DNA of 26,491 nucleotides, from positions 1-26,491 of the forward strand of contig CAZQEL010000012.1 in NCBI GenBank assembly GCA_964591795.1, given 5' to 3'. Shown piece by piece: positions 5,630-26,076 of the stretch (its first letter is position 1; the number at the start of each line of letters is the position of its first letter). Below the pieces are notes generated by a model. That model was not told the origin of the DNA, ran no database searches, and worked only from the letters and a program-made list of their open reading frames with translations. The translations under genes were made by a program, and so were the position numbers. The stretch comes from an uncultured archaeon. Its GTDB lineage: Archaea > Iainarchaeota > Iainarchaeia > Iainarchaeales > CSSED10-239.

Positions 5630-5688
5630 CTTATTTATTATTTTCATAAAAATAAACTTATATATACTCTTGTATTAATAATATTCTT

Positions 5689-7251: not shown

Positions 7252-7280
7252 TTAAATACTTTTAATATAATTAGGTAAAT

Positions 7281-7835
7281 ATGATAAATATGAAACAATA
7301 TATTTTTGGATATGGAAGTATTATAAATAAAGATAGTGTAAATAAAACAACTATTGAAAAAGAAAGAATAATTAAAACTATTACTGGATATAGACGAGAA
7401 TGGAATATAAATATAAAATCTCATTTTCAAACTGCATTAGGAATAGTAAAAAACAAAGATTCTACTTGTAATGGTGTTTTAGTAGAAGTAGATGATATTA
7501 CTGCAGTTGATAAAAGAGAAATAGGTTATACTAGAGAAAAAGTAGATGAGAATATATGGATATATGTTCCTGAACTTACAGGCTCTGCCACAAAAGAATA
7601 TCCAATAATGCAATCATATATTGATGTGATTTTAGAAGGTTGTTTTAAAATATCAAAAGAATTTGCAAAAGAATTTATTGATACCACTGGTGGTTGGAAT
7701 GAACATATTATTTATGATAGAGAAGATCCAAAATATCCTAGAGCACAAAAAGAATTGAAATACAAGTTAGAAATAGATAATTTACTTAGCAATCATCCTA
7801 AAACCAAAGACTTTTTTAAAAAGAAGTTTATTTAA
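7281..7835 (+). CDS. Gamma-glutamylcyclotransferase / ChaC / AIG2-like fold protein
   Basis: N-terminal YIFGYGSIINKDS (the YGSL-type motif) and VDKREIGYTRE, with the conserved Glu context seen in ChaC/GGCT-like proteins. Confidence 0.5.
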   Translation: MINMKQYIFGYGSIINKDSVNKTTIEKERIIKTITGYRREWNINIKSHFQTALGIVKNKDSTCNGVLVEVDDITAVDKREIGYTREKVDENIWIYVPELTGSATKEYPIMQSYIDVILEGCFKISKEFAKEFIDTTGGWNEHIIYDREDPKYPRAQKELKYKLEIDNLLSNHPKTKDFFKKKFI

Positions 7836-7888
7836 TTTATAATACTAAAGTAACTATTCTTAATTTCTTAATTTATAAGTTATTTAAC

Positions 7889-8051
7889 ATTGCGCATTTT
7901 ATTATTTTTTATACGCTGGGATTGCGCAATTTAGCTTTATTTTTTAATACTTTTTTAGGTTATCTAGAAAGTCCTTTAATTATAAGGGTTTAAGGATTAT
8001 TTTTATCTGCGCAATTTGTGTTTTTTTATTAATGATTATTGCGCATTTTAG
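7889..8051. promoter_or_regulatory. Four ATTGCGCA(A/T)TTT boxes in two pairs (putative operators) upstream of the RelA/SpoT-domain gene
   Basis: TGCGCA cores sit at 7891-7896, 7923-7928, 8008-8013 and 8040-8045, giving spacings of 32, 85 and 32 bp. I saw this GC-rich palindromic hexamer nowhere else in the window. A TATA-like tttataaata follows the last box, about 25 nt before the ATG at 8089. Confidence 0.55.
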
Positions 8052-8088
8052 TTTAATTTATAAATACGTCTATTCTATATATATTATT

Positions 8089-9167: not shown

Positions 9168-9680
9168 ATGATTCATAGAAATTATTTTATTCAAGGAAGA
9201 ATATTAATAGAAATATATGAAGATGAAGTATTAATATTAAATCCAAGTAAGCTTCTTTTTAATTTTAAGGATTTTGGAAAACTTAGTGTTTTAAGAAACC
9301 TTATTTTAGCAGGGTGTTTACAGAGAACAGATCTTATTGAAAAAATAGGTTCCGGTATTAAACGAATAAAAAAACTTTCTCCAAGTGTTAGGTTTAATAT
9401 AGATACTGATTGGTTTAGTGTTATATTTAAGAGAAAAACTTTTTCTATTAAATCTACTGTGAATGTCGGTGTAAAAGACACTGTAAGATTAAGTTTAAAT
9501 CAAATAAAAATATTAACTTTAATTAAAGATAATGGTGGTATTACTATTGAAAAATTAAGTGATGATATTGATATAAATGTAAGAAATATTAAAAAAAATA
9601 TATTGAAATTAAAATAATTTGGTTTATTAGAAAGAATTGGTTCAGATAAGGCTGGATATTGGAAAGTTATTGAAAAGTAA
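9168..9680 (+). pseudogene. 3' fragment of a COG2865-type (HATPase_c_4 + wHTH) gene, lacking the AlbA_2 N-terminus and carrying an in-frame TAA at 9615-9617
   Basis: It begins mid-domain (MIHRNYFIQGRILIEIYEDEVLILNPSKL...RNLILAGCLQRTDLIEKIGSGIKRI). After the TAA the same frame continues FGLLERIGSDKAGYWKVIEK*, the typical wHTH C-terminus of this family. It is a paralogue of 12591..13250. Confidence 0.65.
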
Positions 9681-9724: not shown

Positions 9725-10330
9725 TTATAATAATAAAAGTTTACCATAATCTGTTAAATAAAGGAGAACACTTTTTTCTTCAATTAATCCTTTTTCTTTA
9801 AAATCTCTTATATTATTATAAATTGCTGTTCTTCCAAGATTAAATTTATCTGAATTAGCTAAATCTGGTAACGAAATTGCTTTTTTAGAAATTTCTTCTA
9901 GCAAGTCATAAGCTCTTTTTGATATTTCAAAAGAAAGCTTAGGAATAACTACCATTTGGTTTATTTCTTGTGTAAAATAAAGAATTTCTTTAATTTTATT
10001 ACTTCTAGCATAACTTCCAAGCATTATACCAATAGACTTAGATTTTCTTCCAGCAGTAATGTCTACATATATTTCATTTTTTTCTTCATTATATATTTTA
10101 TCTATATTTTGAATAACTTCTTTTGCAATTTCATATATTTCATATAGGTTTGTTTTAATTTCTTTAAATTCTATATGTTTAAAAGTATTTTTTAGTTTTT
10201 CTTTAGTTTGCTTTTGAGTATCATCTGGTTGTTTATCCATAACTAGATAAATAATATCAGGACCTATTCTTGTTATTGCTCCAACCATTGGAGTAAATGA
10301 ATATGTATTTGTTAAAAGTATTTTTTTCAT
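9725..10330 (-). CDS. CARF-like Rossmann domain + C-terminal winged-helix regulator (Csa3-like)
   Basis: N-terminal MKKILLTNTYSFTPMVGAI beta-strand start. The IYVDITAGRKSKSIGIMLG block matches the D-x-T-x-G-x-K CARF signature. The C-terminal LGRTAIYNNIRDFKEKGLIEE is a wHTH. The track start at 10393 adds 21 residues; the internal ATG at 10330 fits the domain boundary better. Confidence 0.55.
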   Translation of the reverse strand: MKKILLTNTYSFTPMVGAITRIGPDIIYLVMDKQPDDTQKQTKEKLKNTFKHIEFKEIKTNLYEIYEIAKEVIQNIDKIYNEEKNEIYVDITAGRKSKSIGIMLGSYARSNKIKEILYFTQEINQMVVIPKLSFEISKRAYDLLEEISKKAISLPDLANSDKFNLGRTAIYNNIRDFKEKGLIEEKSVLLYLTDYGKLLLL

Positions 10331-10508
10331 ATGTTTTTCACTGTAATATATGTTGTCTAATATCTTTTTAAATGTATTTTTTATTAACTTCATTCACAAT
10401 TAAGTGTATTTATATACCTTTTTTTAGATTACTTTAAAAATACTTCTGTGCTATTTATTATATATTAATACAGAATAAAGTGTACTGTACCCAGGAGTGA
10501 GATCTAAA

Positions 10509-11756: not shown

Positions 11757-12425
11757 TTGAAAATGAAACTTCCAATAAACCCTAAAAAGTTACTAGAATC
11801 AGACTTAATTGAAAAAGAAAGATTAGAACTTAAAAAAGGTTTTAACCCTGAATCAATTATACATAAAATCACTGCTTTTGCAAATGATTTTAATAATTGG
11901 GGTGGAGGATATATTTTAATTGGAGTTAATGATAATAAAGAAGTTGAAGGTATTAATAAATATGAAATAGATTCAATTTTAAAAAAAATAATTGAACTTT
12001 GTAATAAAATAAACCCCACTTATTTTCCTGTTATTGAACCTTTTGAATATAATAACAAACATATACTAATTCTTTATTGCCCTGGTGGGTCAGAAAGGCC
12101 CTATAAAGCACCAAAATCTTTAGTAAAACCTTATGATTATAAATTATATATAAGGCATGGTCCTTGCACAGTTATAGCTAATTATAAAGAAGAAACAGAA
12201 TTAATTACTTTAAGTGTTATTCCTTTTGATGATAGAATTAATCATAAGGCAAGCATTGATGATTTAGATGATTCTTTAATAAATAAATACTTAAAAGAAA
12301 CAAACTTAAATTTAAAAGAATTATCAAAAATAGATATTTGTAAAAGTTTAAACATAGTTGATGGGTCAAAAGAATATTTAAAACCAAAAAATATAGGTAT
12401 ATTAATGTTTTGTAAAACTCCATAA
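11757..12425 (+). CDS. AlbA_2 (Schlafen-like) DNA-binding domain segment of a COG2865-type putative regulator
   Basis: ESDLIEKERLELKKGFNPESIIHKITAFANDFNNWGGGYILIGVNDNKEVEG matches the AlbA_2 signature. It ends at TAA 12423-12425, but the frame continues stop-free for 55 codons into 12591..13250. Confidence 0.75.
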   Translation: MKMKLPINPKKLLESDLIEKERLELKKGFNPESIIHKITAFANDFNNWGGGYILIGVNDNKEVEGINKYEIDSILKKIIELCNKINPTYFPVIEPFEYNNKHILILYCPGGSERPYKAPKSLVKPYDYKLYIRHGPCTVIANYKEETELITLSVIPFDDRINHKASIDDLDDSLINKYLKETNLNLKELSKIDICKSLNIVDGSKEYLKPKNIGILMFCKTP

Positions 12426-12590: not shown

Positions 12591-13250
12591 ATGGCTAAAA
12601 GTTTAAGATATTTTTCATATCCTTATCAAGCTATAAAAGAAGCTTTAGTTAATGCTGTTTATCATAAAAGTTATGAAGAGAACGTACCTGTTAAAATAAG
12701 AGTTGAACTTGATAGAATAGATATAGTTTCTTGTCCAGGGCCTCTTCCTCCATTAAATAAAGATAATATTAATAATGATGTTGTAATTTCTAGAAGATAT
12801 AGAAACAGAAGAATTGGTGAATTTTTAAAAGAATATAATTTAACTGAAGGAAAAAATACTGGATTTAGAAAAATCCGAAATGCTCTTAAAAATAATGGTT
12901 CACCTAAACCTATATTTATAACAGATGAAGATAGGGTTCAGTTTATTACAAGAATAAAGATTCATCCTAAATTTAAACAAAATTTTAACTTAGTTCAAGT
13001 TACCCCGCAAGTTACCCCGCAAGCTAGAATTAAAATAATTTTAGAATTTTGTAAAATTGAAAGAAATAGAGACGAAATTCAAACTAAGGTAGATATCAAG
13101 GATAGAGAATATTTCAGATCTAAAATATTAAACCCATTAATAAAAGAAGACTTAATTTCTCAAACAATTCCAGAAAAACCAAACAGTCCAAATCAAAAAT
13201 ACTTAATTACAGAAAAAGGTGTTAATTTTTTAAAAAAAGTAAGTAATTAA
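12591..13250 (+). CDS. HATPase_c_4-like + C-terminal wHTH segment of the same COG2865-type gene
   Basis: YPYQAIKEALVNAVYHKSYEENVPVKIRVELDRIDIVSCPGPLP and RRYRNRRIGEFLKEYNLTEGKNTGFRKI. It is in frame with 11757..12425. Confidence 0.75.
   Translation: MAKSLRYFSYPYQAIKEALVNAVYHKSYEENVPVKIRVELDRIDIVSCPGPLPPLNKDNINNDVVISRRYRNRRIGEFLKEYNLTEGKNTGFRKIRNALKNNGSPKPIFITDEDRVQFITRIKIHPKFKQNFNLVQVTPQVTPQARIKIILEFCKIERNRDEIQTKVDIKDREYFRSKILNPLIKEDLISQTIPEKPNSPNQKYLITEKGVNFLKKVSN
12999..13022 (+). repeat. Perfect 2 x 12-nt tandem duplication (gttaccccgcaa), encoding VTPQVTPQ
   Basis: Read directly: caa gttaccccgcaa gttaccccgcaa gct. It is conspicuously GC-rich for this window. Confidence 0.9.
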
Positions 13251-13493: not shown

Positions 13494-16400
13494 ATGAGTG
13501 AAAATATTGTTCAAAATCAAGCAATTAAAAAAATTACAGGACCTTGTATTATTTTAGCTGGTGCTGGAACTGGAAAAACAACCACAATACGTCAAAAAAT
13601 TAAATATTTAATAGATAATAAGCACTATAAACCTGAAGAAATACTTTGTTTAACCTTTTCAAACGAAGCTACAAATAATTTAAAAGAAAAAATATTTGAA
13701 GATATTAAAAGCGCTTCTAATTCTTTAACAATAAAGACATTTCATTCTTTTTGTTCTGAAGTAATCAAAGAAAACTATTCTTTTTTTAATATTAATTTTG
13801 ATTTTAAAATAATACAACCAGATGACTCTAAAGTACTAATACATAAATACTTTAATATTGAACCATATAATGCAAATAGATATGTTCATACTATTCAAAA
13901 CTGTAAAGATTTTGGAATAGCTATTGAAGATATTACTAATTATATAAAAAACATCTTAGAACCAAAACTTCTTGTTAAAACAACAATTGATAATATTAAA
14001 GCCTTTTATCTTGAAAGAGAAAAAGAACTTAGAACTATTTACAAAGAAATTAAGCATGAAGACAAAGATATTAGAAAAAACTCAAAAGAATACAAAAAAG
14101 AACTAAAAAAATATATTGAAGATTATAAAAATTATATTAAATTTAATAAATTTGTTAAAACATGGAACGAATATGAACAATTAAAAAAAGAAAAGAACTA
14201 TTTAGACTATGGTGACTTAAACAAACTAGTTTTAGAATACTTTAATGAAAATGGTGCTTCTAAATACACAGAACAATACAAATATGTGTTTGTTGATGAA
14301 TTTCAAGATACAAACAAACTTCAATTTGATTTAATTAAACATATTGCAGAACATAGAAACATAACTGTTGTTGGAGATATGAATCAATCCATTTATGGAT
14401 TTAGAGGAGCTTATAAAGAAAGCTTTGAAAAATTTGAAGAAAATTTTAAAGTTTCAAAAGAAACTGATGTTTTTTATTTAAATAAGTCATACAGGTCACC
14501 AAACACAGTTTTAAATATAGCCTATGAGTTAATAAAGAACAACTATGAAGAAAACAGCAAAGAATGTAAACTAATACAAAATGCAGATAACAGAGATGGA
14601 GAAAAAGTAAAAGTAGTCTCCTTTATTGATCAATATGAAGAAGCAAGATATATTTCTGATGAAGTTGAAAAAGAAATTGAAAATAAAATACCATTAGACC
14701 AAATTGCTATTCTAATAAGAACACATAAACAAGCAGAAATTATAAAACAAGCTCTTATTCTTAAAAAAATACCTTTTGTATACTCAGGAAAAACAAATAT
14801 TCTAGAGTATGCTGAAATTAAAACTGTTGTTTCATACTTATCAATACTTAATAACTTAATTAACAGAACAGCTACTGGTGAACAAGCATGGTGGAATCTT
14901 TTTCATTATAATAATACCTTAGACCCAGTTGACTCACTTAATATAAGTCACTATTTAAAAGCACATAGAAAAGAAAATCTATCCATTGACACACTACTTT
15001 TAGAATCTTTAACTGAATTAACACCAAAGGGTCAGAAAATAGTTAATAGAGTAGTTGAAAAATTAACTATTTTAACCAAACTATCAAATAAACCACTTCC
15101 AGAACTTGTTTTAGACATATATGATATCACTGGTTTAAATAGAAATTTTACATATAAAAGAACAATTGAAAACACAGAACATTTACTTAATTTAAAACAA
15201 TTTTATGAAATTACTAAAAATTATTATGAATTTCATGATAAATCTTTAATTTCATTTATTGATTATCTTGAAATGTTAGATAAACTTGATGTAAATATAC
15301 AAGCAAATCAAGTATCAAACCTTAATGCTATAAAATTAATGACAATTCATGCTTGTAAAGGACTTCAGTTTGAAAAAGTAATACTAACTAACCTTGCTGA
15401 AAAAAGATTTCCACTAGATAGAACACATAATGATCCATTAATTCCAAAAGAATTAATTGAAGATCGTAGACTAGAAATTGAAAGATTTAAACTTGAAAAT
15501 AAAGATCTTTCTTCAATAGATTTAGAAAAAGCAACAGCAGCAAGACTAAAAGAATACGAAAAAGAAATACTTCTACTTGACGAAAGACGTCTTTGTTATG
15601 TTGGATTTACAAGAGCAAGTAAATCATTAACATTAACTTTTGCAAAATCATATAGTTCTTCAGATAAAGCTTCTAAAAATTCAGTATTTTTAGATGAAAT
15701 TAAATATTTAGAAAGCAAAGATGTAGAATATACTGAAAATCTTGAAGATATATCAACAGTAATGGCTCCAAACTCAAAAGCTGAACAATTTAAATCTCTT
15801 TTAAAAAATCAACTTGTTTCTTCATTAGATTCAGATGATTTAGAATCATTAATACAAAGACTTAGTAAATACTTTGCAGTTAGAGAAAAACAATCCTCTC
15901 TTCAAGAAATAATAAACAACGTTGTTCTTGATAAAGAAGAACTACAAAAAGACATTTTAAAATATCAAGAAAATATAAACTCAATTAAATTTAATAAAGC
16001 TGAATTTAAATTCAGCCCATCATCAATTATGACCTATTTAGAATGTCCTAAAAAATTTGAACTTTCAGTAATATATAATATGCCACAAATTGGTGCTTTT
16101 GATGAAATTGAAGAAGAAGATCTAGACTCATCAGGTTCTGCTCTTAACAAAGGTAGTTACCTTCACAAAATTTTAGAAATTTTTATAATAAATAAAAAAA
16201 CCAACATAGAAGACATACAAACCATTGCAAAAGATCTTTTAAAAACAGAATTTTTAGCAAAAATCTATCAAAAAGACTATTTAGAAATAATAGAGCTTTG
16301 TAAAGTTTTTTTAGAAAGAAACCTTGAAAAAATATCCTCCTCTAAAAAACAAGAAACAGAGATTGATATCAACTTTGAGCTTGATGGTTATAGGATACAC

Positions 16401-16817
16401 GGTAAAGTTGATAGAGTAGATTATTTAAAAGGCGATTTAGAAGGTTTTGTTGATATAATTGATTACAAGACAAACAAGAGTGCAATTCCTCTTGAAAAAA
16501 GAAAAGTTCAGCTTGGTCTTTACGCTCTAGGGTTAATGAACCAAGGGTACAAGATAAACAAGATTGTTTTAGACATGTTAAAGCTTGAGTCACCTGTGGA
16601 AATGATAATCGACAACGACAATCAAGACGAAGTCACCGCATCTTTAGGATGTAACAAACTATCAAACTTCACTATCACAGAGTTTAAGCAACATATCTTG
16701 GACACATGTAAAAATATAGAAAAAGATTACGAGCACGATTTCAAGGTTATCGAATCAAACAGTCCATGTAAGTTTTGTGGTTACAAGTTTTATTGCCCGA
16801 AGTGGAGAACTGAATAA
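13494..16817 (+). CDS. UvrD/PcrA-type SF1 helicase fused to a C-terminal Cas4/AddB-like PD-(D/E)XK nuclease with a four-Cys cluster
   Basis: Helicase motifs: ILAGAGTGKTTT (Walker A), VFVDEFQDTN, VGDMNQSIYGFRGA, LNKSYRSPNTVL, MTIHACKGLQFEKVIL and RRLCYVGFTRASKSL. Nuclease motifs: YLECPKKF, GSYLHKILE, GKVDRVDY...VDIIDYKT, QLGLYA and CKFCGYKFYCP (C..CxxCx5C). Confidence 0.9.
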   Translation: MSENIVQNQAIKKITGPCIILAGAGTGKTTTIRQKIKYLIDNKHYKPEEILCLTFSNEATNNLKEKIFEDIKSASNSLTIKTFHSFCSEVIKENYSFFNINFDFKIIQPDDSKVLIHKYFNIEPYNANRYVHTIQNCKDFGIAIEDITNYIKNILEPKLLVKTTIDNIKAFYLEREKELRTIYKEIKHEDKDIRKNSKEYKKELKKYIEDYKNYIKFNKFVKTWNEYEQLKKEKNYLDYGDLNKLVLEYFNENGASKYTEQYKYVFVDEFQDTNKLQFDLIKHIAEHRNITVVGDMNQSIYGFRGAYKESFEKFEENFKVSKETDVFYLNKSYRSPNTVLNIAYELIKNNYEENSKECKLIQNADNRDGEKVKVVSFIDQYEEARYISDEVEKEIENKIPLDQIAILIRTHKQAEIIKQALILKKIPFVYSGKTNILEYAEIKTVVSYLSILNNLINRTATGEQAWWNLFHYNNTLDPVDSLNISHYLKAHRKENLSIDTLLLESLTELTPKGQKIVNRVVEKLTILTKLSNKPLPELVLDIYDITGLNRNFTYKRTIENTEHLLNLKQFYEITKNYYEFHDKSLISFIDYLEMLDKLDVNIQANQVSNLNAIKLMTIHACKGLQFEKVILTNLAEKRFPLDRTHNDPLIPKELIEDRRLEIERFKLENKDLSSIDLEKATAARLKEYEKEILLLDERRLCYVGFTRASKSLTLTFAKSYSSSDKASKNSVFLDEIKYLESKDVEYTENLEDISTVMAPNSKAEQFKSLLKNQLVSSLDSDDLESLIQRLSKYFAVREKQSSLQEIINNVVLDKEELQKDILKYQENINSIKFNKAEFKFSPSSIMTYLECPKKFELSVIYNMPQIGAFDEIEEEDLDSSGSALNKGSYLHKILEIFIINKKTNIEDIQTIAKDLLKTEFLAKIYQKDYLEIIELCKVFLERNLEKISSSKKQETEIDINFELDGYRIHGKVDRVDYLKGDLEGFVDIIDYKTNKSAIPLEKRKVQLGLYALGLMNQGYKINKIVLDMLKLESPVEMIIDNDNQDEVTASLGCNKLSNFTITEFKQHILDTCKNIEKDYEHDFKVIESNSPCKFCGYKFYCPKWRTE

Positions 16818-16905: not shown

Positions 16906-17775
16906 ATGGTAGATAAAAAAAATAAAATTAGATTGTTTGAACAGACTAAAGTTAGAACTGTATGGGATGAAGAAAATCAAAAATGGTGGTTTTCTGTACT
17001 AGATATTGTTGGAATATTAACTGACCAGCCTAATTTTCAAAAGGCGCGTAATTATTGGAAATGGTTAAAAAATAAATTAAAATCAGAAGGAAATGAAACG
17101 GTTAGTAATACTAACCAGTTGAAAATGAAAGCAGAAGATGGCAAAATGCGTCTAACTGATGTGGCTTGTACTGAACAACTTTTAAGACTTATTCAATCAA
17201 TTCCTTCAAAAAAAGCAGAACCATTCAAGATATGGCTTGCAAAAGTAGGTAATGAAAGAATTGACGAAACAATCGATCCAGAAATTTCAATTGATAGAGC
17301 AATTCAAAATTATTGTAGATTAGGTTATAGTGAAAATTGGATAAATCAAAGAATAAAATCTATTGAAATAAGAAAAGCTTTAACAGATGAATGGGATAAA
17401 AGTGAGGTTAAAAGAGGAAAAGAATATGCAGAATTAACTGATTTAATGAGTAAGACTTGGAGTGGAATGACTACACTTGAATATAAAAAATATAAAAATT
17501 TGAAAAAAAAGAATCTGCGAGATAATATGACAAACACAGAGCTTATTTTAAATATGCTCTCAGAAGTTGCAACAACAGATATTTCTATGGTTCGCAGTCC
17601 AATAGGTCTTCAAGAAAGTAAGAAAGTTGCTAAAGAAGGTGCAAAAACAGCAAAAGTTGCAAGAGAACAACTTGAAAAAAGTACAGGAAAGAGAGTAATA
17701 AGTAAGTCAAACGTTAAAAAATCTGATAAAAACATTTTAGATGATAGATCTAAAATTAATAAATTTGATAAATAA
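16906..17775 (+). CDS. Bro-N domain protein (phage antirepressor / DinD-like family)
   Basis: FEQTKVRTVWDEENQKWWFSVLDIVGILTD...QLKMKAEDGKMRLTDVACTEQLLRLIQSIPSKKAEPFKIWLAKVGNERIDE is a widely conserved Bro-N family sequence. G+C is visibly higher than in neighbouring genes. Confidence 0.8.
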   Translation: MVDKKNKIRLFEQTKVRTVWDEENQKWWFSVLDIVGILTDQPNFQKARNYWKWLKNKLKSEGNETVSNTNQLKMKAEDGKMRLTDVACTEQLLRLIQSIPSKKAEPFKIWLAKVGNERIDETIDPEISIDRAIQNYCRLGYSENWINQRIKSIEIRKALTDEWDKSEVKRGKEYAELTDLMSKTWSGMTTLEYKKYKNLKKKNLRDNMTNTELILNMLSEVATTDISMVRSPIGLQESKKVAKEGAKTAKVAREQLEKSTGKRVISKSNVKKSDKNILDDRSKINKFDK

Positions 17776-17790: not shown

Positions 17791-17928
17791 ACAGTGTTTA
17801 AGCAACATATCTTGGACACATATAAACAAATAGAAAACGATTACGAGCACGATTTCAATCCAGTGGACTCAAAGGACAAATGTAAATTTTGCGGATACAA
17901 ATTTTATTGTCCAAAATGGAGAGAATGA
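17791..17928 (+). pseudogene. Displaced duplicate of the helicase-nuclease 3' end (last 44 codons)
   Basis: It translates to FKQHILDTYKQIENDYEHDFNPVDSKDKCKFCGYKFYCPKWRE*. The corresponding 16677-16817 translates to FKQHILDTCKNIEKDYEHDFKVIESNSPCKFCGYKFYCPKWRTE*. The first 26 nt are identical, and many of the later differences, especially in the Cys-cluster stretch, are synonymous. An in-frame TAA sits immediately upstream (17788-17790) and there is no start codon. Confidence 0.8.
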
Positions 17929-18222
17929 ATATAAATATTAATATAAATATTTATATATTTATTGTTTTTTAAAATGTTGAAAATAGGATTTATAAAAAAT
18001 AATAACTTTATAAAGACTACGTCAACATATATATGTATATGATGCAAAATAATCAATTAATTATGAGTATTTATAACCTATTAGATAACTTTGGACATTT
18101 CTTTATTCATAAAGATAGATTGTGTTTACTTTTGAATAAATTAGATGTAGATTATGATTTAGATAAAATAATTATAAAATTAAATAATTGAAGGTAATAT
18201 AAATAATATATGTGGTGTTGTG

Positions 18223-18786
18223 ATGATAAAAAATAAAAAAAATGATAAGATTGCTTTGATAGTTACTTTAACAATTATTGGTTTTTTAGTTATAATAGGT
18301 ATAATCGCATTACAATCACCTAGTACTAGTTCATCAGAAACAATATATACAAAACAATTATCTAAAGAAAATATTAATGTAATTAATAATAAAAGTTTAG
18401 ATAATAAATATTTAGAAAAGCTTGATAATGGATATATTGAAGTAAAGATACCTAAAAAAATATCTGATAAATTATATTTAGATAATAATCATGTAATAAT
18501 AAACTATTCTTTTGATGGATATAATGATGAATTAATTGTGAATATAAATAATATTGATGCAAAATATTATTTTAATATAAAACAAATTACTTCTTTTGTT
18601 ATAAAAGGTAATAATAATGATATACGTATTAAAAATTGTAATAACATAGAAAGTATAACTATTATGGGTGATTATGATATAGTAAATTTAGATGAAGATA
18701 GTTGTATTGAAAGATTATTTTGGAAAGATACATTATATATATCAGGAGATCATAGTGATGTGGTTGGTGGAGATGATTGGGATTAA
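18223..18786 (+). CDS. Signal-anchored / secreted protein with a C-terminal repetitive beta-rich region, function unknown
   Basis: N-terminal TM segment IALIVTLTIIGFLVIIGIIAL followed by a Ser/Thr linker. The C-terminal part, FVIKGNNNDIRIKNCNNIESITIMGDYDIVNL, resembles short beta-helix-type repeats. A GTG at 18220 or the ATG at 18223 could be the start. Confidence 0.55.
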   Translation: MIKNKKNDKIALIVTLTIIGFLVIIGIIALQSPSTSSSETIYTKQLSKENINVINNKSLDNKYLEKLDNGYIEVKIPKKISDKLYLDNNHVIINYSFDGYNDELIVNINNIDAKYYFNIKQITSFVIKGNNNDIRIKNCNNIESITIMGDYDIVNLDEDSCIERLFWKDTLYISGDHSDVVGGDDWD

Positions 18787-18945
18787 GGTGTTTTTATTTT
18801 AAATAATAATGAAATATCAAATTCAGAAAAAATAGTTTGAAATTTAGTATATATAAATTATATTTATACAAAAAATATTTTTTTGGTGTGTAGATTGGTA
18901 AATAAATATATTTTTTATGTAAATAGAAAATAAAGGAAAAATAAT

Positions 18946-19185
18946 ATGACTAAAAAAAAAGAAAAAATGTCAAAATCAGAAAAAAATAGTAACATTGCTT
19001 TTATTTCATCTATAATTATTTGTATTTTTGCATATATATATTTAGTTAATCCTATTCTTAATGAATTTAATATTGGTATTGGTTGGAAGATTGGGTTTAT
19101 TATTTTTGAATTTTTTGTTTGTTTAGGATTAATTTCTTTAATTCTTAATACTGGAGATGCTATGAAAAAAGGAGTAGATAATTAA
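18946..19185 (+). CDS. Small membrane protein (2 TM)
   Basis: A lysine-rich N-terminus followed by two hydrophobic helices. An SD-like aaggaaaaa lies upstream. Confidence 0.5.
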   Translation: MTKKKEKMSKSEKNSNIAFISSIIICIFAYIYLVNPILNEFNIGIGWKIGFIIFEFFVCLGLISLILNTGDAMKKGVDN

Positions 19186-19286
19186 AGATTTAATTTAGAA
19201 AAGGTTTAATACAGATAGAATACAATTAAATAAATTAAAATGGGAAAAATTCATGGTGAAATTAATATTGCAAAGGTTAAAAAAAT

Positions 19287-19640
19287 ATGAATAAAAAAGA
19301 AAGAATTAAAGAAATTAAATTGCTTAAAAAAGAAGGTTATTCGATTAAAAAAATAATTTCAGAAGGTTTTACTAAATATGAATTATTAAAAGCAGGATAT
19401 TCTAAAAAAGATTTATATATAATTAATCAAAAAAAGACTAATTTAGGTATTTTAAGTATAATATTTGCATGTGGATCTTTATTTTTGTTACCTCCATTTT
19501 TAGGGTTGGCAGGAATAATATTAGGGATTATTGGGATTACAAAAAATGAAGGTGCCACAGCAATAATTGGATTAGTATTAAGTTTCATATTTCCTTTTAT
19601 TGGAATGATATTAGGATTAATGGTTTGGGTTTATTTATAG
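19287..19640 (+). CDS. Small membrane protein: N-terminal triple GYS/GFT short repeat, C-terminal DUF4190-like 2-TM region
   Basis: N-terminal KKEGYSIKKIISEGFTKYELLKAGYSKKDLY. The C-terminal part is GILSIIFACGSLFLLPPFLGLAGIILGIIGITKNEGATAIIGLVLSFIFPFIG. Confidence 0.55.
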   Translation: MNKKERIKEIKLLKKEGYSIKKIISEGFTKYELLKAGYSKKDLYIINQKKTNLGILSIIFACGSLFLLPPFLGLAGIILGIIGITKNEGATAIIGLVLSFIFPFIGMILGLMVWVYL

Positions 19641-19752
19641 GTACTTTTTACATATTTACTCTTCAATATGTTATTGAAAAGGTTAAAAATCATACTAAAA
19701 TAGTTAGATATTTAAATGAATTATAGTTATAATTATAGTATAGTTATATTAT

Positions 19753-20133
19753 ATGAATAAAGTATATTGTAGTGAATGTGGAAAAAAAATATCTAAAAAT
19801 GCAGTTATTTGTTTAAACTGTGGAGGAAAACAAAATCTTGATTCAGTAAAAACGAAAACTAATATTAAAATTAATCAAAGTTTAATAAAAATGGTTAAAT
19901 TAGTAGAGTTTGGTATTGTTCTTGGTATTCTTTTTAATTTTTTTGCATATATTTATTCTTGGAAAGAAGATTATTATAAATTTTGGATTATGCTTGTAAT
20001 TTATTTTCTTTTATCTATAACCTTCTCAAAATTAGGTAATTATAGTATCTATTTTGCACTTTTTTTAATGCTAATTATAATTACTGATTTTTTATCAAAA
20101 AAGGATTCTGAGTTTTATATTTGGAAAAAATAA
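19753..20133 (+). CDS. Zinc-ribbon membrane protein
   Basis: VYCSECGKKISKNAVICLNCGG (CxxC-x10-CxxC) followed by hydrophobic helices. It is a tandem paralogue of the next gene. Confidence 0.6.
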   Translation: MNKVYCSECGKKISKNAVICLNCGGKQNLDSVKTKTNIKINQSLIKMVKLVEFGIVLGILFNFFAYIYSWKEDYYKFWIMLVIYFLLSITFSKLGNYSIYFALFLMLIIITDFLSKKDSEFYIWKK

Positions 20134-20153
20134 TAATTTTAATGTGAGTGTAT

Positions 20154-20504
20154 ATGGGATTAATTTATTGTAGAGAATGTGGAAAAAAAATATCAGATAC
20201 TGCTGATGTTTGTGTTAAATGTGGAGCATCTGTAGACACAGGTAGTAAAATTACAGATAAAAGATTAATTATTGAAAAAAAAAGAAAATCAACCGCTATA
20301 ATATTAGCTATATTTTTTGGTCCTATTGCTTGGACTTATACTTGGAAGTTTGATAAAGCTAAATTTTGGGCTGGTATAATTGTTGATTTGTTATTCTTTT
20401 GGACTATTTTTATTCCTATAGCTATTACTATTTGGGCAATTATAGATATGTCTATAAAAGATGATGATAAATTCGAAAATTATCATAAATATAAAGCAAG
20501 TTAA
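20154..20504 (+). CDS. Zinc-ribbon membrane protein (paralogue)
   Basis: IYCRECGKKISDTADVCVKCGA followed by 2 TM helices (AIILAIFFGPIAW..., IFIPIAITIWAIID). The track start is the GTG at 20148; an ATG at 20154 is an alternative. Confidence 0.6.
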   Translation: MGLIYCRECGKKISDTADVCVKCGASVDTGSKITDKRLIIEKKRKSTAIILAIFFGPIAWTYTWKFDKAKFWAGIIVDLLFFWTIFIPIAITIWAIIDMSIKDDDKFENYHKYKAS

Positions 20505-20625
20505 ATTAAATTAAAAATTAAAAATTGGGTAAAGGTTTTTTAATGAAAAAAATAGTTAATTTTTTTATTATATTTTAATATATTATCTACAGATAAGAAT
20601 ATTTTTAAAAAAGGATAAATTATAT

Positions 20626-21585
20626 ATGAAATTATTTATAAATAGAAATGAAATTAATTCTATATTTGAATTATTAGGTACTAAGGAAAATAATATTACA
20701 TATGCAACAGGCTGGTGTTTTTCTAATATTAAGCCATTTTTAGATATATTTCTTTCAGAAATTGAAAGTAAGAAAATAATTGATGAAATGGATATTAATT
20801 TACAAAAATTTGATGAAGATAAAGGTTATAAAGATATTGAATTAATTTCTAATAATTATCATTATATAATTGAAGCAAAAAAAGGATGGAATTTACCTTC
20901 TAAATTCCAGTTATTAAGATACACTTCACGTTTTAAAAAAGAAAAAAATAATAAGATAATTGTGTTAAGCGAATGTAAAAAAGAATATGCTAAAAAGATT
21001 TTAGCTAAATATAATTCTAAAATACCTATTGAATTTATATCATTTAATAAAATTTATGAACTGATAAAAAAAATAAGATGTGATTGTAATTATAAGCAAA
21101 GATATATTTTGGATGAATTATATAAATATTATAAAAAGGCGGTAAAAATGATTGATATAAATTCAAATAAAGTGTTTTGTGTTGTTATTTCAGACAAAAA
21201 ATTAGTAAAAGATTTTACTTTTTTAGATGTTGTAAAAAAAGGTTATTATTTTTATCCATTAGTAACTAATTGGCCAAAAGATAAACCTCCTACATATATT
21301 GCTTTTAGATCTAAAGGTAAATTATTATCTATTCATTATGTTAAAGATTATGATGTTGTTGAAAAACCAGATAAATATATACCAGAATTAAAAGGCTGGA
21401 AAGGTTGGAGTAATAATTTACATTATATTTTAAAATTAGGTAAAGCATTTAAACCAAACCACGAAGTAAAAAATGGAAAAATATATGCTAGTCAACATTT
21501 ATGGTGTATGTTAGATACGTTATTTACTTCCAAAACAATAAAAGAAGCAAGGGATATAACTCAAAAAAGATGCATAACTAAGTGA
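20626..21585 (+). CDS. Hypothetical protein with an N-terminal PD-(D/E)XK-like motif set
   Basis: KENNITYATGW (Glu), YKDIELISNNYHYIIEAKKGW (D...ExK spacing) fits a restriction-endonuclease-like core. The C-terminal half (YIAFRSKGKLLSIHYVKDYDVV) is unassigned. Confidence 0.45.
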   Translation: MKLFINRNEINSIFELLGTKENNITYATGWCFSNIKPFLDIFLSEIESKKIIDEMDINLQKFDEDKGYKDIELISNNYHYIIEAKKGWNLPSKFQLLRYTSRFKKEKNNKIIVLSECKKEYAKKILAKYNSKIPIEFISFNKIYELIKKIRCDCNYKQRYILDELYKYYKKAVKMIDINSNKVFCVVISDKKLVKDFTFLDVVKKGYYFYPLVTNWPKDKPPTYIAFRSKGKLLSIHYVKDYDVVEKPDKYIPELKGWKGWSNNLHYILKLGKAFKPNHEVKNGKIYASQHLWCMLDTLFTSKTIKEARDITQKRCITK

Positions 21586-21620
21586 AATTATTTAAATATT
21601 TAATTATAGGAAAATAGGAT

Positions 21621-22304
21621 ATGCTAAAAACAAATAATTTAAATAATATTTTAAATTCAAAAAAATTAGTTGAAAGATCATTAACTATTGTGAAAAGAGA
21701 ATATAGACCTTATGATCCTGGTAATTATCTTTATAATTTACTATTAAATAATAATAAAAATATATTTTCTGATAAATATCTTGAGTTAATTTATACCACA
21801 CTTATTTCTTGGAATATGAATTCAAGAGGTGCAAAATTAAAAAATATAAATTCTTTTAAAAAATCTATCCTTAAAAACAGAAAAATAATATCTAATTTAA
21901 AAATATATACATTTAATGATTTAAATAAACACTCTAAAGAGATATTTATACAATTAGAAATATTATATAATAATTTAGAATTATGCATACAAAAATCAAA
22001 GATAGTCACTTTTTCTAAAACTATGCATTTTTTATTACCAAAATTATGTATCCCTATTGATAGAAAATATACTTTAAGATTTTTTTACAATAGTACAAAT
22101 ATAAATTATAACACACAATTTAAGAGATATAAACAAATAAACAAATACTTTTTAGAAATATATAATCAACACAATTTAAAACAATATTTAGATATAGGTA
22201 AAATTATATGGAATACAACTATTCCAAAGATATTAGATAATATAGTAATAGGATATATGATATTAATAGATAAAGAGGAAAAATATGAAAACAAAAGATT
22301 TTAA
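21621..22304 (+). CDS. Hypothetical protein, no family recognised
   Basis: A 227-aa ORF lying 35 nt after the previous gene and overlapping the next by 20 nt. Conserved-looking blocks are LIYTTLISWNMNSRGAKL and SKTMHFLLPKLCIPIDRKYTLRFF. Confidence 0.5.
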   Translation: MLKTNNLNNILNSKKLVERSLTIVKREYRPYDPGNYLYNLLLNNNKNIFSDKYLELIYTTLISWNMNSRGAKLKNINSFKKSILKNRKIISNLKIYTFNDLNKHSKEIFIQLEILYNNLELCIQKSKIVTFSKTMHFLLPKLCIPIDRKYTLRFFYNSTNINYNTQFKRYKQINKYFLEIYNQHNLKQYLDIGKIIWNTTIPKILDNIVIGYMILIDKEEKYENKRF

Positions 22305-23445
22305 TAATTTAAAAATACTTTTAGAAAAAATTAAAAATATTACTTGGATAGAAAGGGTAATTTATTGGAGACCTATTAGATCTTTAAGTTATGATGCTTA
22401 TGATGAATTTAAATCATTAGATAATATTATTGAAGATAATAAAGAAAAATTACAAAAATATGAACAAGATAACAAATTATTAAATAAAGATATAGAAAAT
22501 TATAAAGAAAAAATAAATGATTCTAAATCAGATATAAAAATAAAAGATAACACTGTATACAATCTTAATAAAGAAATAAGTGAAAAAGACAAAATAATAG
22601 CAAAATCAGAAAAAGAATATGAAACACACAGACAAACACATCAAAAATCAATAGATGGTTTTGATAGTAGAAGAAAACAACTAGAAGATGAAAGATTAGA
22701 AGAACAAAAACAAATATTTGAAAAAATGAAAGAAACTTGGCAAAACCATGAAAAAGAGGTAGAAAGAGTAATAAAAGATATATGTAAAAGAAACCAAATA
22801 TCTTATCTTTCAAAAGAAAAAATAGAAATTAAAGGAAAACCAGATAATACTATTAAAATTATAGATGAATATGTAATATTTGATGCAAAATCACCAGCAA
22901 ATGATAATTTAGATAATTTTCCAAAATATTTAGTTGATCAAACTAAAAGAATAGAAAAATACATAAAAGAAAAAAATGTTAAAAAAATAATATATTTAGT
23001 AATACCATTAAACACAGTATCTATATTAAAACAATTTGTATATGAAGTTAATAACTATAAGGTATTTATAGTAACAATAGATTCTTTAGAATCTATAATA
23101 CTATCTTTAAAAGAAGTAGAAAAGTATCATTTTGTAGATAAACTAAGTCCAGAAGATAGAAATCAAATATGTGATATTATAGGAAGATATGCAAATACTA
23201 CAAAAAGAAAGATAGAGATAGATAATATAGTAAATCATGAGTTTTTGAAGATTGCAGACAGTTGCAATGATTTAAATCCAAATATTAAGAAATCAGCAGT
23301 AGAGTATGAGAAAGCATATGCTTTAAATCCACCAATGGCAAAGAAAGGTAAGTTATTAGACCTTGATAAGTTAGATGAGGATATTAAGGTTATTGATCAT
23401 AAGAGGGTACTTAAACAGAAAAAGTTGTTAGGGAAAAAGAAATAA
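22285..23445 (+). CDS. RmuC-like protein: N-terminal coiled coil + C-terminal PD-(D/E)XK-type nuclease domain
   Basis: A long K/E-rich coiled-coil region, then KGKPDNTIKIIDEYVIFDAKSPANDNLDNFPKYLVDQTKRIEKYI and IYLVIPLN. These parallel the RmuC core (PD..i.lp....iviDaK.pl..Y ... mFiP.E). Confidence 0.55.
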   Translation: MKTKDFNNLKILLEKIKNITWIERVIYWRPIRSLSYDAYDEFKSLDNIIEDNKEKLQKYEQDNKLLNKDIENYKEKINDSKSDIKIKDNTVYNLNKEISEKDKIIAKSEKEYETHRQTHQKSIDGFDSRRKQLEDERLEEQKQIFEKMKETWQNHEKEVERVIKDICKRNQISYLSKEKIEIKGKPDNTIKIIDEYVIFDAKSPANDNLDNFPKYLVDQTKRIEKYIKEKNVKKIIYLVIPLNTVSILKQFVYEVNNYKVFIVTIDSLESIILSLKEVEKYHFVDKLSPEDRNQICDIIGRYANTTKRKIEIDNIVNHEFLKIADSCNDLNPNIKKSAVEYEKAYALNPPMAKKGKLLDLDKLDEDIKVIDHKRVLKQKKLLGKKK

Positions 23446-23456
23446 GGAGTGATAAA

Positions 23457-23663
23457 ATGGATTGGATAGAAGTATCATCAAAACGAGTTAGTGAAGTAGC
23501 ATTTGATGTTGTTGAAAAAAAAGTTTTTGTTAAATTTAAAAGCGATGGTGTAATTTATATTTATAATGGAGTATCTGAAGATATATTTAAACAATTTATT
23601 ACAGCCGTATCTATTGGTAGTGCAATACCTTTGTTAGGTAATAATTATCATAAATTAACTTGA
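23457..23663 (+). CDS. KTSC-domain protein
   Basis: SSKRVSEVAFDVVEKKVFVKFKSDGVIYIYNGVSEDIFKQFITAVSIGSAI follows the KTSC consensus (S..i..v.Yd.....L.V.F..G..Y.Y..V....y..l..A.S.G). An SD-like aaggagtga sits 11 nt after the previous stop. Confidence 0.7.
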   Translation: MDWIEVSSKRVSEVAFDVVEKKVFVKFKSDGVIYIYNGVSEDIFKQFITAVSIGSAIPLLGNNYHKLT

Positions 23664-23776
23664 ATATAAAATGAATTAATATATTATGAATATTAATGTA
23701 TGTGGTATCTAAATAAATTTATATTATACATATAATTAAAAATTATAGTTGTAAAAAAATAAAATAAAAATAATTG

Positions 23777-25969
23777 ATGAAAATGGAACTTAATATTAAT
23801 TTAGAAAATTGTTATGGTATAAAAAAATTAGATATGAAATTTAATTTTAATGTCAATAATACTTTTGCAATATATGCTCCGAATGGTAGTATGAAAACAT
23901 CATTTGCAAAAACATTTTTAGATTTAAGTGATAATTATAAAAAATCAGAAGATTTAATAAATCCTGAAAGAAATACTTTAAGAATAATTAAAGATGAAAA
24001 TGATAAAGATTTAGATTGTAATTCTATTTTTGTTATAAAATCATATGATGAAGATTATGCTTCAAAAAAAGTATCAACATTATTAGCAAATCCAAAATTA
24101 AGAAAAAAATATGAATTAATTGTGTTTGATATTACAAAATTAAAACAAAGGTTTTTAAAAGAGTTAAAAGATATATCAAAATCAAGAAAAAATATAGAAG
24201 ATGAATTGTATAAAGTTTTTAATGAAAATGAATTTGTTGGTGTTTTCAAAAAGATTAAAAGTTTAATATGTGATGTAGATTATAATTTTTCAAATTTAAA
24301 TTATGATTTATTTTTTAATGATAAAGCATTTGATTTTTTAAAAACAAGTGGGTTTAAATTAAAGCTTAAAGAATATATTGAGATTTATGATTCTTTATTA
24401 AAAAATTCTAGATTCTTAAAAAATGGATTTAATCATTATAAAGCAAATAAAATAAGTAAAGAATTGAGTAAGGATAGTTTTTTTAATGCAAAACATTCTT
24501 TAAATTTATTTGATGCAAAAACTAATAAAAATATTGAAGTAAAAAGTATAATAAACTTTGATGATATCATTGAGAAAGAAAAAAATTTAATTTTAAGTAG
24601 TAATGAATTAAAATTAAAATTTAAAAGTATTGATTCTAAAATAAAAAATCAAGAATTAGAAGAATTACGTGAATTTTTAAAAGAAAATAAAGAAATTATA
24701 ATTGAATTGAATGATTTAGTTAATTTTGCTCAAAAAATATGGGTGTCTTATATTATTAATAATAATAAAGAGTTATTTGAAGAATTATTTATTAAAGCTG
24801 AGAAAGATATTAAAAACATTTTAATTGAGGTTAAAAAAGAACAAAAAGATTGGAAAGAAGTAATTTCTGAATTTAATAAAAGATTTTTTGTGCCTTTTAA
24901 AATTAAAATAAAGAATATTGAAGATATTGTACTAAAAGGTGAAACTATACCATTTTTTGAATATGAATTTAAAGATAAAGATAATAATACTAATACATCT
25001 AAATCTGAACTTATGACTGTATTAAGTAGTGGTGAAAAGAAAGCTTTATATTTATTAAATATTATTTTTGAAGTAAAAGCAAGAGATAAATTAAGTCAAA
25101 AAACAATATTTATTATAGATGATATTGCTGATTCTTTTGATTATAAAAATAAATATGCAATTATTCAATATTTAAAAGAAATTGCTGAAAATAGTCACTT
25201 TTATCAAATAATTTTAACACATAATTTTGATTTTTTTAGAACAATTCAAAGTAGATTTGTAAGTTATAAAAATTGTTTAATTGCTTCAAAAGATAATTCT
25301 AAAATTAAATTAATATCTAGTAAATATATAAAAAACCCTTTTATAAATGATTGGAAGCTTCATAAATTTAAAGAAGATTCTAAGTTTATTGCATCGATTC
25401 CATTTGTAAGAAATTTAGTTGAATATTGTGGTAATATAAATTATTATGATGTATTAACATCTTGTTTACATATTAAAGAAAATACAAACAAATTAAATGT
25501 AGGTAAAATTAGAACTATTTTTGAAAATGTTTTAAATTTAACTTTTTCTTTAGATAATGAAGATAAATTAATAAAAAATTTAGTTTTTGAAGTTTGCAAT
25601 GATATTTTAAGTGAAAATATCACAGTTAGTGATTTAGATAAAAAGATCACATTATCTATTGGAATTCGTTTACAAGCAGAATTATATTTAATTAATAAAA
25701 TAAAACTATTTGAAAATATAGCAAAACTATATGAAATTTGTAAAGAAAAAAATAAATCTCAAACATATTTTTTATATAGTAAATTTTGTGAATATTTCCC
25801 TAATAATTATAACACAAAATCAATTTTAGATAAAGTAAATTTAATAATACCTGAAAATATACATGTGAATTCATTTATGTATGAACCAATACTTGATATG
25901 GGTTGTAATTCTTTAAAGCAATTATATAAAGATGTGTTTGAATTAAATAAAGAACAAATTAAATTATAA
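23777..25969 (+). CDS. Rad50/SMC-style ABC ATPase (AAA_13 / RloA-PrrC-like architecture) with an atypical Walker A
   Basis: N-terminal P-loop FAIYAPNGSMKTSFAKTF and a coiled-coil insert of about 300 aa. This is followed by the ABC signature LSSGEKKALYLLNIIFE, Walker B TIFIIDDIADSFD and the H-loop region QIILTHNFDFF. A C-terminal domain of about 230 aa is unassigned. The track start is the TTG at 23774; ATGs occur at 23777 and 23783. Confidence 0.75.
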   Translation: MKMELNINLENCYGIKKLDMKFNFNVNNTFAIYAPNGSMKTSFAKTFLDLSDNYKKSEDLINPERNTLRIIKDENDKDLDCNSIFVIKSYDEDYASKKVSTLLANPKLRKKYELIVFDITKLKQRFLKELKDISKSRKNIEDELYKVFNENEFVGVFKKIKSLICDVDYNFSNLNYDLFFNDKAFDFLKTSGFKLKLKEYIEIYDSLLKNSRFLKNGFNHYKANKISKELSKDSFFNAKHSLNLFDAKTNKNIEVKSIINFDDIIEKEKNLILSSNELKLKFKSIDSKIKNQELEELREFLKENKEIIIELNDLVNFAQKIWVSYIINNNKELFEELFIKAEKDIKNILIEVKKEQKDWKEVISEFNKRFFVPFKIKIKNIEDIVLKGETIPFFEYEFKDKDNNTNTSKSELMTVLSSGEKKALYLLNIIFEVKARDKLSQKTIFIIDDIADSFDYKNKYAIIQYLKEIAENSHFYQIILTHNFDFFRTIQSRFVSYKNCLIASKDNSKIKLISSKYIKNPFINDWKLHKFKEDSKFIASIPFVRNLVEYCGNINYYDVLTSCLHIKENTNKLNVGKIRTIFENVLNLTFSLDNEDKLIKNLVFEVCNDILSENITVSDLDKKITLSIGIRLQAELYLINKIKLFENIAKLYEICKEKNKSQTYFLYSKFCEYFPNNYNTKSILDKVNLIIPENIHVNSFMYEPILDMGCNSLKQLYKDVFELNKEQIKL

Positions 25970-26076
25970 ATGTTTATTTATTAATTTATAGAAAATTATG
26001 ATGTTTTATAAGTTTAAACGAAAATGATAATAAAAGGTTTTTTAATTTAAATAATATATAATATATGTGATTAAAT

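Follow-up and report, generated by a model that had tools for sequence, protein, structure and literature searches.

A probable hyper-variable defence-gene hotspot, and probably not a four-gene system, at four closely packed genes in an uncultured archaeon of the Iainarchaeota

Background

Core hotspots in which defence genes form a variable cargo flanked by conserved genes have been described in Pseudomonas aeruginosa and Escherichia coli (PMC10250203, PMC10121019). Among single defence proteins, ShdA of the Shield system is a membrane-bound anti-phage nuclease with an RmuC domain, which is enough for defence alone (Shield I), and Shield is known only from Pseudomonas (PMC10270631). Here, a stretch of 26,491 nucleotides (nt) from an uncultured archaeon (GTDB lineage Iainarchaeota, CSSED10-239; GenBank assembly GCA_964591795.1, contig CAZQEL010000012.1, positions 1 to 26,491 of the forward strand), referred to as the window, was analysed with respect to four closely packed genes, g1–g4, which an earlier reading of the sequence (the original prediction) had taken for one novel anti-mobile-element system.

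Comparison with related loci makes it very likely that g1–g4 are neighbours in a hyper-variable defence-gene hotspot, in which they are independently mobile passengers or residents, and it is highly probable that they are not one system. Much lower confidence attaches to the functions proposed below for the single genes. A uvrD-type gene and g3 frame two slots in which mostly recognisable defence cargo differs from genome to genome, with slot A being the interval from uvrD to g3 and slot B the region downstream of g3. The whole window has a G+C content of ~20%, and the open reading frames (ORFs) called g1–g5 follow each other in order, all on the + strand. The g3 unit, as defined here, comprises the coding sequence (CDS), its own Shine-Dalgarno sequence and the ribosome binding site (RBS) for the next gene:

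g1, 20626-21585, + strand: 319 amino acids (aa), predicted PD-(D/E)XK nuclease with C-terminal domain, slot-A cargo
g2, 21621-22304, + strand: 227 aa, all-alpha, large uncharacterised family, slot-A cargo
g3, CDS 22285-23445, + strand: 386 aa, coiled coil and predicted PD-(D/E)XK core, recurrent hotspot element
g3 unit, 22269-23456, + strand: own Shine-Dalgarno sequence, CDS and RBS for the next gene
g4, 23457-23663, + strand: 68 aa, KTSC domain, slot-B cargo
g5, 23774-25969, + strand: 731 aa, ABC/SMC-type ATPase, PDC-S46, slot-B cargo

Results and discussion

Conservation of the gene order

Positions, strand and junctions of the four ORFs were confirmed as originally given (g1/g2 +35 nt, g2/g3 -20 nt, g3/g4 +11 nt), with a gap of 110 nt between g4 and g5, and no named multi-gene system was found to match g1–g4. 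For the analysis of gene order, 149 loci with a total of 1.36 Mb were collected, comprising 45 genome loci with g2 as anchor, 80 metagenome loci with g1 as anchor and 24 loci with g3 as anchor, and these were searched by tblastn with the window proteins, by hmmsearch with family profiles of g1–g3 and by phmmer with g4. The order g1–g4 was conserved in none of the 149 loci: no locus contained three or four of the families, only locus L104 contained two (g1 and g2), and a g4 homologue was not found near any g1, g2 or g3 homologue. Since the families co-occur nowhere else in this order, a co-evolved four-gene system is unsupported. By name, the closest relatives of g1, g2 and g3 belong to Ca. Ainarchaeum, Micrarchaeota and Woesearchaeota, which makes a DPANN archaeon the probable source.

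The tight junctions, which had been put forward as evidence of a system, do not carry that weight. Close packing is usual in the window, where 10 of the 24 co-directional junctions measure <=40 nt and 6 of them <=15 nt, so that a run of three such junctions is unremarkable, and a shared g1–g4 transcript, which is likely, would be a side effect of this compact packing. A scan of the window for sigma-70 promoters and intrinsic terminators yielded 93 promoter-like sites versus 87 expected and 0 terminators; it was uninformative, and its model is probably inapplicable to an archaeon.

Recent exchange of g3 as a discrete unit

The loci L156 and L157 were found via the 90% identity cluster of the window g3 itself, and the g3 protein of L156 is 91% identical to that of the window. 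At the DNA level, an identity of 92.9% is confined to positions 22269-23456 of the window (9984-11172 of L156), while the flanks reach <=73%; for uvrD the identity is 73% at the DNA and 66% at the protein level, and the M16 peptidases share 40% in protein. Because the block of high identity is confined to g3 between diverged flanks, g3 was exchanged recently as a discrete unit. The shared block starts at the Shine-Dalgarno sequence of g3 (GATAAAGAGG...ATG), which is located inside the end of the upstream ORF, i.e. g2 in the window and McrC in L156, and it stops right after TAAGGAGTGATAAA, the RBS of the following gene, at the ATG of that gene. The last 12 codons of g2 thus run into the conserved g3 unit, and in L156/L157 McrC overlaps g3 by 4 nt. 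As the block boundaries carry both RBSs, the -20 and +11 junctions come with the g3 unit, which brings its own RBS, embedded in the tail of any preceding ORF, and supplies an RBS to the gene that follows. Within 21 kb of L156/L157 no g1, g2, g4 or g5 was present.

Against this background, the original proposal of a single four-component anti-mobile-element system, for instance two nucleases with an adaptor and a small regulator, was reconsidered. The shared orientation and close spacing of the genes, the two nuclease cores and the defence-island setting would all agree with it. It is nevertheless regarded as very improbable and as largely refuted: not one of the 149 loci unites more than two of the families, the neighbours of the nearest g3 relative are wholly different, and the -20 and +11 junctions were inherited with the g3 unit in a window where close junctions are usual anyway.

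The uvrD…g3 hotspot in related lineages

A UvrD/PD-(D/E)XK gene followed by g3 in the same order was found in at least six lineages, represented by the window, L008, L010, L139/L150, L149 and L156. The UvrD homologues that precede the g3 homologues in L008, L139/L150, L149 and L156 are 49-66% identical, and the content of the two slots differs between loci:

Window: slot A, Bro-N/PDC-S13, five small ORFs, g1, g2; slot B, KTSC, PDC-S46
L008/L009: slot A, nothing; slot B, cas12a-cas4-cas1
L139/L150: slot A, GmrSD and four small genes; slot B, 388-aa gene, MazG-like, SLFN-helicase, AAA_15/21
L149: slot A, one 248-aa gene; slot B, cut ORF (contig end)
L156/L157: slot A, AlbA_2/HATPase_c_4, AAA+ gene, McrB, McrC; slot B, DSPc, DUF87, Zn-ribbon protein, MmeI-like enzyme

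L008/L009 hold the closest g3 homologue outside the 90% cluster of the window g3 (55% identity). Of these, L008 shares synteny with the window (AlbA_2 70%, HATPase_c_4 87% and UvrD/PDDEXK 49-62% identity), with only 37 nt separating UvrD from g3. The recurring flanks and the differing, defence-enriched cargo identify the locus as a core-gene-flanked defence hotspot.

Beside the upstream anchor of the hotspot, the window contains a direct repeat of 132 nt and further slot-A cargo:

UvrD-type SF1 helicase fused to PDDEXK_1 nuclease, 13494..16817, + strand: UvrD-helicase 6e-65, UvrD_C 7e-43, PDDEXK_1 2e-24; upstream hotspot anchor
uvrD 3' end, repeat copy 1 (genuine), 16677..16808, + strand: 132-nt direct repeat
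Bro-N gene, PDC-S13, 16906..17775, + strand: Pfam Bro-N 4.5e-10, PADLOC 4e-123; cargo between the duplicated uvrD 3' ends
uvrD 3' end, repeat copy 2, 17791..17922, + strand: 81% identity to copy 1; scar of cassette insertion
Five small cargo ORFs, 18220..20504, + strand: one of 188 aa, four small membrane/zinc-ribbon ORFs (Zn_Ribbon_1 matches)

The duplicated ~130 nt of the uvrD 3' end encode ...CKFCGYKFYCPKW. In L156 the end of uvrD is likewise duplicated (4730-4900 and 6214-6303) after its own first cargo gene, and in both loci each duplicate copy resembles the uvrD of its own genome. Such a duplication is the scar expected from an insertion at this place: cargo enters next to uvrD, and ~130 nt of the uvrD 3' end are duplicated in the course of it. 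The syntenic locus L008 has none of the five small ORFs at 18220..20504 in its uvrD-g3 interval. A 32%-identical homologue of the small membrane ORF 18946-19185, located upstream of g1, was observed directly downstream of g3 in L156 (11180-11356); small ORFs too move between slots A and B. Two further members of the group, 19753-20133 and 20148-20504, are tandem paralogues encoding zinc-ribbon and membrane proteins, whose 5' ends form a 97-nt repeat with 72% identity.

Other repeats were observed in the window. A direct repeat of 159 nt (291-449 and 2012-2170, 81% identity) brackets the ORFs 625-1224 (winged HTH) and 1202-1963, which may represent a further cassette insertion. An exact 14-mer, AAAGGTTTTTTAAT, is found at 20531-20544, 95 nt upstream of g1, and at 26033-26046, 64 nt downstream of g5. 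Its copy at 26033 and a related sequence at 2195 (2195-2256) are each located ~43 nt upstream of an ATG. With <=2 mismatches, the 14-mer has 12 matches in the window versus 6.2 expected, which is weakly above chance. It could be a promoter element of the BRE/TATA type or a cassette boundary; as an att site it was rejected, since it looks more like a promoter element.

Type V-A CRISPR-Cas loci recur in slot B. In three of the nine low-GC-clade lineages with g3, the g3 homologue is followed on its own strand, after 11-18 nt, by cas12a-cas4-cas1-cas2:

L009: g3 263-1471, cas12a 1485-5315
L010: g3 3075-4226, cas12a 4245-8006
L011: g3 645-1769, cas12a 1781-5842

From this linkage it might be supposed that g3 is an accessory of type V-A CRISPR-Cas (Cas12a) which was retained in the window after loss of the cas genes. 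We consider this improbable, because other genes lie downstream of g3 in six lineages and the g3 and Cas12a trees disagree: g3 of L009 is nearest to that of L011 (62%), whereas its Cas12a is nearest to that of L010 (58%, compared with 29% to L011). Furthermore, neither a cas gene nor a CRISPR array was detected in the window, and most members of the g3 family come from Bacteroidota without cas12a. A role as general Cas12a accessory was rejected on the grounds of the discordant trees and of a linkage in only three of nine lineages. The tree discord instead indicates that type V-A loci were captured or exchanged repeatedly at the site.

Several points weigh against the interpretation of the locus as a hotspot of independent genes. 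Of the low-GC clade of g3, the comparison covers only nine lineages. In the window, g1–g4 are co-directional with no obvious internal terminator, so that they may well be co-transcribed and could interact. Copies of g1 and g2 stand side by side in two places, the window and L104; in the latter, a g2-like fragment truncated at the contig end (2-505) precedes g1 (561-1556) and a full g2 homologue (1666-2358). Finally, the more distant g3 homologues of Bacteroidota stand alone, surrounded by metabolic genes, a setting that fits a housekeeping role at least as well as a defence role.

In comparison with the known core hotspots, the locus likewise consists of framework genes (the uvrD-type gene and g3), genome-specific defence cargo and signs of horizontal exchange. 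It differs from those of P. aeruginosa and E. coli in that its host is a very AT-rich, probably DPANN archaeal lineage, that the framework gene g3 is itself a predicted nuclease which is exchanged horizontally, and that the breakpoints are located exactly at RBSs and start codons, with ~130 nt of the uvrD 3' end duplicated on insertion.

g3, a coiled-coil protein with a predicted nuclease core

The g3 family comprises at least 1538 clusters at 90% identity. Its core G184-x-P186-D187-N188 ... F199-D200-x-K202, corresponding to the PD...DAK motif noted originally, is invariant in 38 homologues. In the AlphaFold2 (AF2) model of g3, with a predicted local distance difference test score (pLDDT) of 78, a single helix (28-169) is followed by an alpha/beta core with strands at 173-175, 189-192, 195-200, 235-240 and 252-264. 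All meaningful Foldseek matches of this model are PD-(D/E)XK proteins and all are weak (N.BspD6I with E=0.014, McrC, R.BspD6I, R2 RLE, Can2, Bax1 and Lassa endonuclease). Together, the invariant motif and the modelled core strands place g3 in the PD-(D/E)XK superfamily. Searches of g3 against Pfam, NCBIfam and PADLOC returned coiled-coil noise only, and sequence and profile searches against PDB gave nothing meaningful.

The protein had been called RmuC-like, a designation that stands for its architecture and falls for its family membership. Like RmuC (YigN, PF02646), g3 carries its PD-(D/E)XK core behind an N-terminal coiled coil, and its motifs occur in the same order (W..E, PD, hhDAK, K.Y, hhhhP, hhhT/S..L). 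It differs from RmuC by the lack of a Pfam match at any threshold tried and of a membrane anchor. PF02646 did not match g3 at E<=1, with E. coli RmuC as control at 3.4e-109, and the 25 families with the most frequent matches to the 38 g3 homologues at E<=10 do not include RmuC. No transmembrane helix was found in g3, whose maximal Kyte-Doolittle mean over 19 residues is <=1.48 and lies in the beta core, compared with 2.46 at residue 5 of E. coli RmuC. For profile comparison with hhalign, an RmuC profile was built from five genuine proteins (E. coli, Shewanella, Pseudoalteromonas, Sphingomonas and Nocardia); it replaced E. coli RmuC alone, against which the g3 profile had aligned only with its coiled coil. 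The alignment of the g3 profile with the five-sequence RmuC profile spans 127 columns and matches PD to PD and DAK to DAK, the later strands also being in register, at P=0.0047 and an hhalign probability of only 7.5%. The nuclease domains alone scored 23.1 over 129 columns, whereas controls scored 12-19 over 12-47 columns. Thus, g3 is not a member of the Pfam RmuC family; it shares the RmuC architecture, and a remote kinship is probable.

Shield ShdA (PMC10270631) is comparable in kind: g3 likewise combines an RmuC-type architecture with a defence-island setting and variable genes downstream. In contrast to ShdA, g3 has no PF02646 match and no N-terminal transmembrane helix but a coiled coil of 140 residues, and its distribution takes in archaeal-type and Bacteroidota genomes. 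Homologues of ShdB-E were not identified, and by these sequence comparisons the protein falls outside both the Shield and the RmuC families. In analogy to ShdA, g3 may degrade invading DNA, acting as a soluble and oligomeric coiled-coil nuclease.

A housekeeping role of g3 in recombination or repair, as a functional analogue of RmuC working with the neighbouring UvrD/PD-(D/E)XK protein while defence genes merely accumulate around the pair, is a serious, if less favoured, alternative. It would agree with the retention of the uvrD...g3 order in six lineages, with the solitary Bacteroidota homologues, with a large and well-conserved family whose relatives are absent from 2.9 million viral contigs, and with an RmuC-like architecture whose catalytic motifs are in register with those of genuine RmuC. 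Such a role is harder to reconcile with the recent horizontal exchange of g3, which is typical of an accessory gene (93% DNA identity versus 73% for uvrD DNA and 40% for the M16 peptidase protein), and with the repeated re-assortment at the site that is indicated by the discordant g3 and cas12a trees. Moreover, the view that RmuC domains serve housekeeping only is outdated, since RmuC-domain proteins can be defensive, as exemplified by ShdA (PMC10270631).

g1, a predicted two-domain restriction-type nuclease

The residues D70, E72, E83 and K85 of the D...ExK motif in g1 are invariant in 32 homologues, with the pattern TDIE...IIEAKKGW. Weak matches to PDDEXK_4 were obtained for 14 of these 32 members (best 1.2e-4), to HSDR_N for four and to NucS_C for three, and a few resemble AHJR; all of these Pfam matches are below the gathering score. 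For g1 itself, sequence searches of Pfam, NCBIfam, PADLOC and PDB returned nothing significant, while a 55%-identical homologue is labelled 'PD-(D/E)XK nuclease family protein' at NCBI. On account of the invariant motif and the weak family matches, the N-terminal half of g1 (residues ~1-170) is assigned to the PD-(D/E)XK nuclease superfamily. The g1 family yields more than 527 metagenome hits. Residues ~176-319 form a second, strongly conserved domain without a detectable family.

Homologues of g1 are placed between hsdS and hsdR in L086 and L117, where the junctions overlap, and adjoin hsdM in L068 and L133, i.e. they occupy the positions of guest nucleases in type I restriction-modification (R-M) operons; others adjoin Nmad2 or Endonuclea_NS_2 genes. 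With ~320 aa, g1 also invites comparison with type IV and guest nucleases such as Mrr, McrBC, GmrSD and the PvuRts1I-like enzymes with their N-terminal nuclease and C-terminal reader, but its own C-terminal domain cannot be linked to a known family. These features suggest that g1 may be a restriction-type DNA endonuclease, whose C-terminal domain would probably pick the target, possibly modified DNA, although dependence on modification is pure conjecture.

g2, a large all-alpha family

As stated originally, g2 belongs to no family that could be named: it is unmatched in Pfam, NCBIfam, PADLOC and PDB, including a profile search of PDB. The family is large, with 1431 representatives at 50% identity. 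AF2 predicts an all-alpha domain of 12 helices (pLDDT 94.3, predicted template modelling score 0.91), for which Foldseek found no match with E<0.3 in PDB and BFVD. An invariant pair K133...D147 is located within a 'SKTxHF...PIDR' block.

The best biologically meaningful structural match is 3f10 (OGG), at rank 2 with E=1.3, probability 0.23 and a TM-score of 0.35, which is insignificant; it is the sole helix-hairpin-helix (HhH) enzyme in the top 50. One of 31 family members matches aGPT-Pplase3 weakly (E=0.024). HhH DNA glycosylases associated with defence are known as the Brig1 and Dag families (PMC11078745, bioRxiv 10.1101/2025.10.29.685425), with further background in PMC8989533. Like HhH glycosylases and aGPT-Pplase, g2 is small, all-alpha, highly divergent and tied to defence islands or R-M loci; unlike the former, it has no GxG hairpin and no profile match to any glycosylase. 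A glycosylase-like chemistry, suggested by the SK133TxHF...PID147R block and the weak aGPT-Pplase3 and OGG matches, is only a lead.

Homologues of g2 are located inside type I R-M loci in L013, L024, L054, L032 and L033; they are immediate neighbours of UvrD/PDDEXK_1 genes in L022 and L057, and of a small PDDEXK_1 gene in L017 and L033. The g2 domain is fused to DUF7669 (4 members), to a C5 cytosine DNA methyltransferase (E=1e-73), to DUF7675, to DUF7662 and to zinc ribbons; multi-domain homologues include P0381, P0432, P0439 and P0462, and one member weakly matches DUF6308. Fusions with DUF4268, a domain linked elsewhere with GmrSD type IV enzymes (PMC4619093), form one tight lineage with mutual identities of 85-90%. 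The idea that g1 and g2 are a split version of this fusion was rejected, as DUF4268 resembles neither domain of g1. Because the homologues of g1 and g2 sit separately in restriction-type loci, the two families are regarded as independent guests of such loci, and g2 might be an enzyme or a sensor connected with the modification and restriction of DNA.

Alternatively, g1 and g2 could form a facultative module in which the nuclease is paired with a partner that modifies, senses or licenses DNA, similar to a small R-M or type IV-like pair, with g3 and g4 as unrelated neighbours. Their adjacency is repeated in L104, where the copies are divergent (40% and 34% identity) and a second g2-like fragment lies upstream, and both the abutting UvrD/PDDEXK_1 and PDDEXK_1 genes and the fusions with DUF4268 and the C5 methyltransferase would be in line with such a partnership. 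We nevertheless judge it unlikely, considering that the pair is present in only two of the ~126 loci anchored on g1 or g2, that both families are mostly found alone, and that both frequent type I R-M operons independently, which makes chance adjacency in islands plausible.

g4, g5 and the remaining island

The assignment of g4 as a KTSC protein was borne out by a match to PF13619 above the cut-off (34.7 bits versus 25 bits, E=1.5e-8, profile positions 1-48 of 58). So far, KTSC has been described only as a domain that binds RNA and is sporadic in phages (PMC7824862); g4 may be a small nucleic-acid-binding protein. g5 matches the PADLOC single-gene candidate PDC-S46 over its full length (E=5.5e-231). 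Each of g1–g4 would act alone in the proposed scheme.

Upstream of uvrD, the window contains the following further genes:

PDC-S33 with RelA_SpoT domain, 8032-9153: PADLOC E=2e-117
Stand-alone CARF3 protein, 9725-10393, - strand: no cas genes nearby
AlbA_2 and HATPase_c_4/Fic-like_C on separate ORFs, 11757-12425 and 12591-13250

In L008 (1101-2561, 486 aa) and L156 (4886-6214, 442 aa), AlbA_2 and HATPase_c_4 are joined in a single gene, and the copy in the window may be split or pseudogenised; a third HATPase_c_4 fragment was observed at 9168-9617. Neither a tRNA gene nor an integrase or recombinase gene was seen in the window. The island context invoked in the original prediction was upheld for PDC-S33/RelA_SpoT, CARF, AlbA_2, PDC-S13/Bro-N and the ABC-type ATPase PDC-S46, and not for the 'AbiE-like' ORF 1202-1963, which has no Pfam match. 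The defence island is genuine, and two of the genes encode predicted PD-(D/E)XK nucleases. For the genes taken singly, a function against mobile elements is the likeliest interpretation.

Conclusions

The locus type, a core-gene-flanked hotspot, is already known, while g1, g2 and g3 are, by the searches made here, outside every named defence family. Tentatively, and with clear reservations about the combination as a whole, the results can be put together as follows: the g3 family would represent a new, membrane-free coiled-coil branch of RmuC-like proteins acting in single-gene defence, which marks an archaeal hotspot with cassette swaps at RBSs and start codons and with repeated capture of cas12a loci immediately downstream; g2 would represent an enzyme family with a new fold and a connection with DNA modification and restriction (~1,400 representatives at 50% identity), maybe a very derived glycosylase-like one; and g1 would be a new two-domain restriction-type nuclease.

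With regard to method, genes that lie close together and point the same way provide little evidence of a multi-gene system when the genome is compact, and in the present case the comparison with one close relative overturned the operon reading. If the combined interpretation given above is correct, the window holds three uncharacterised single-gene defence candidates instead of one system. The three large unannotated families g1, g2 and g3 keep company with R-M, McrBC, GmrSD and Cas12a genes and are candidates for experiments, and the hotspot, with its unusually clean cassette boundaries, belongs to a lineage, probably the DPANN archaea, whose antiviral repertoire is poorly known.

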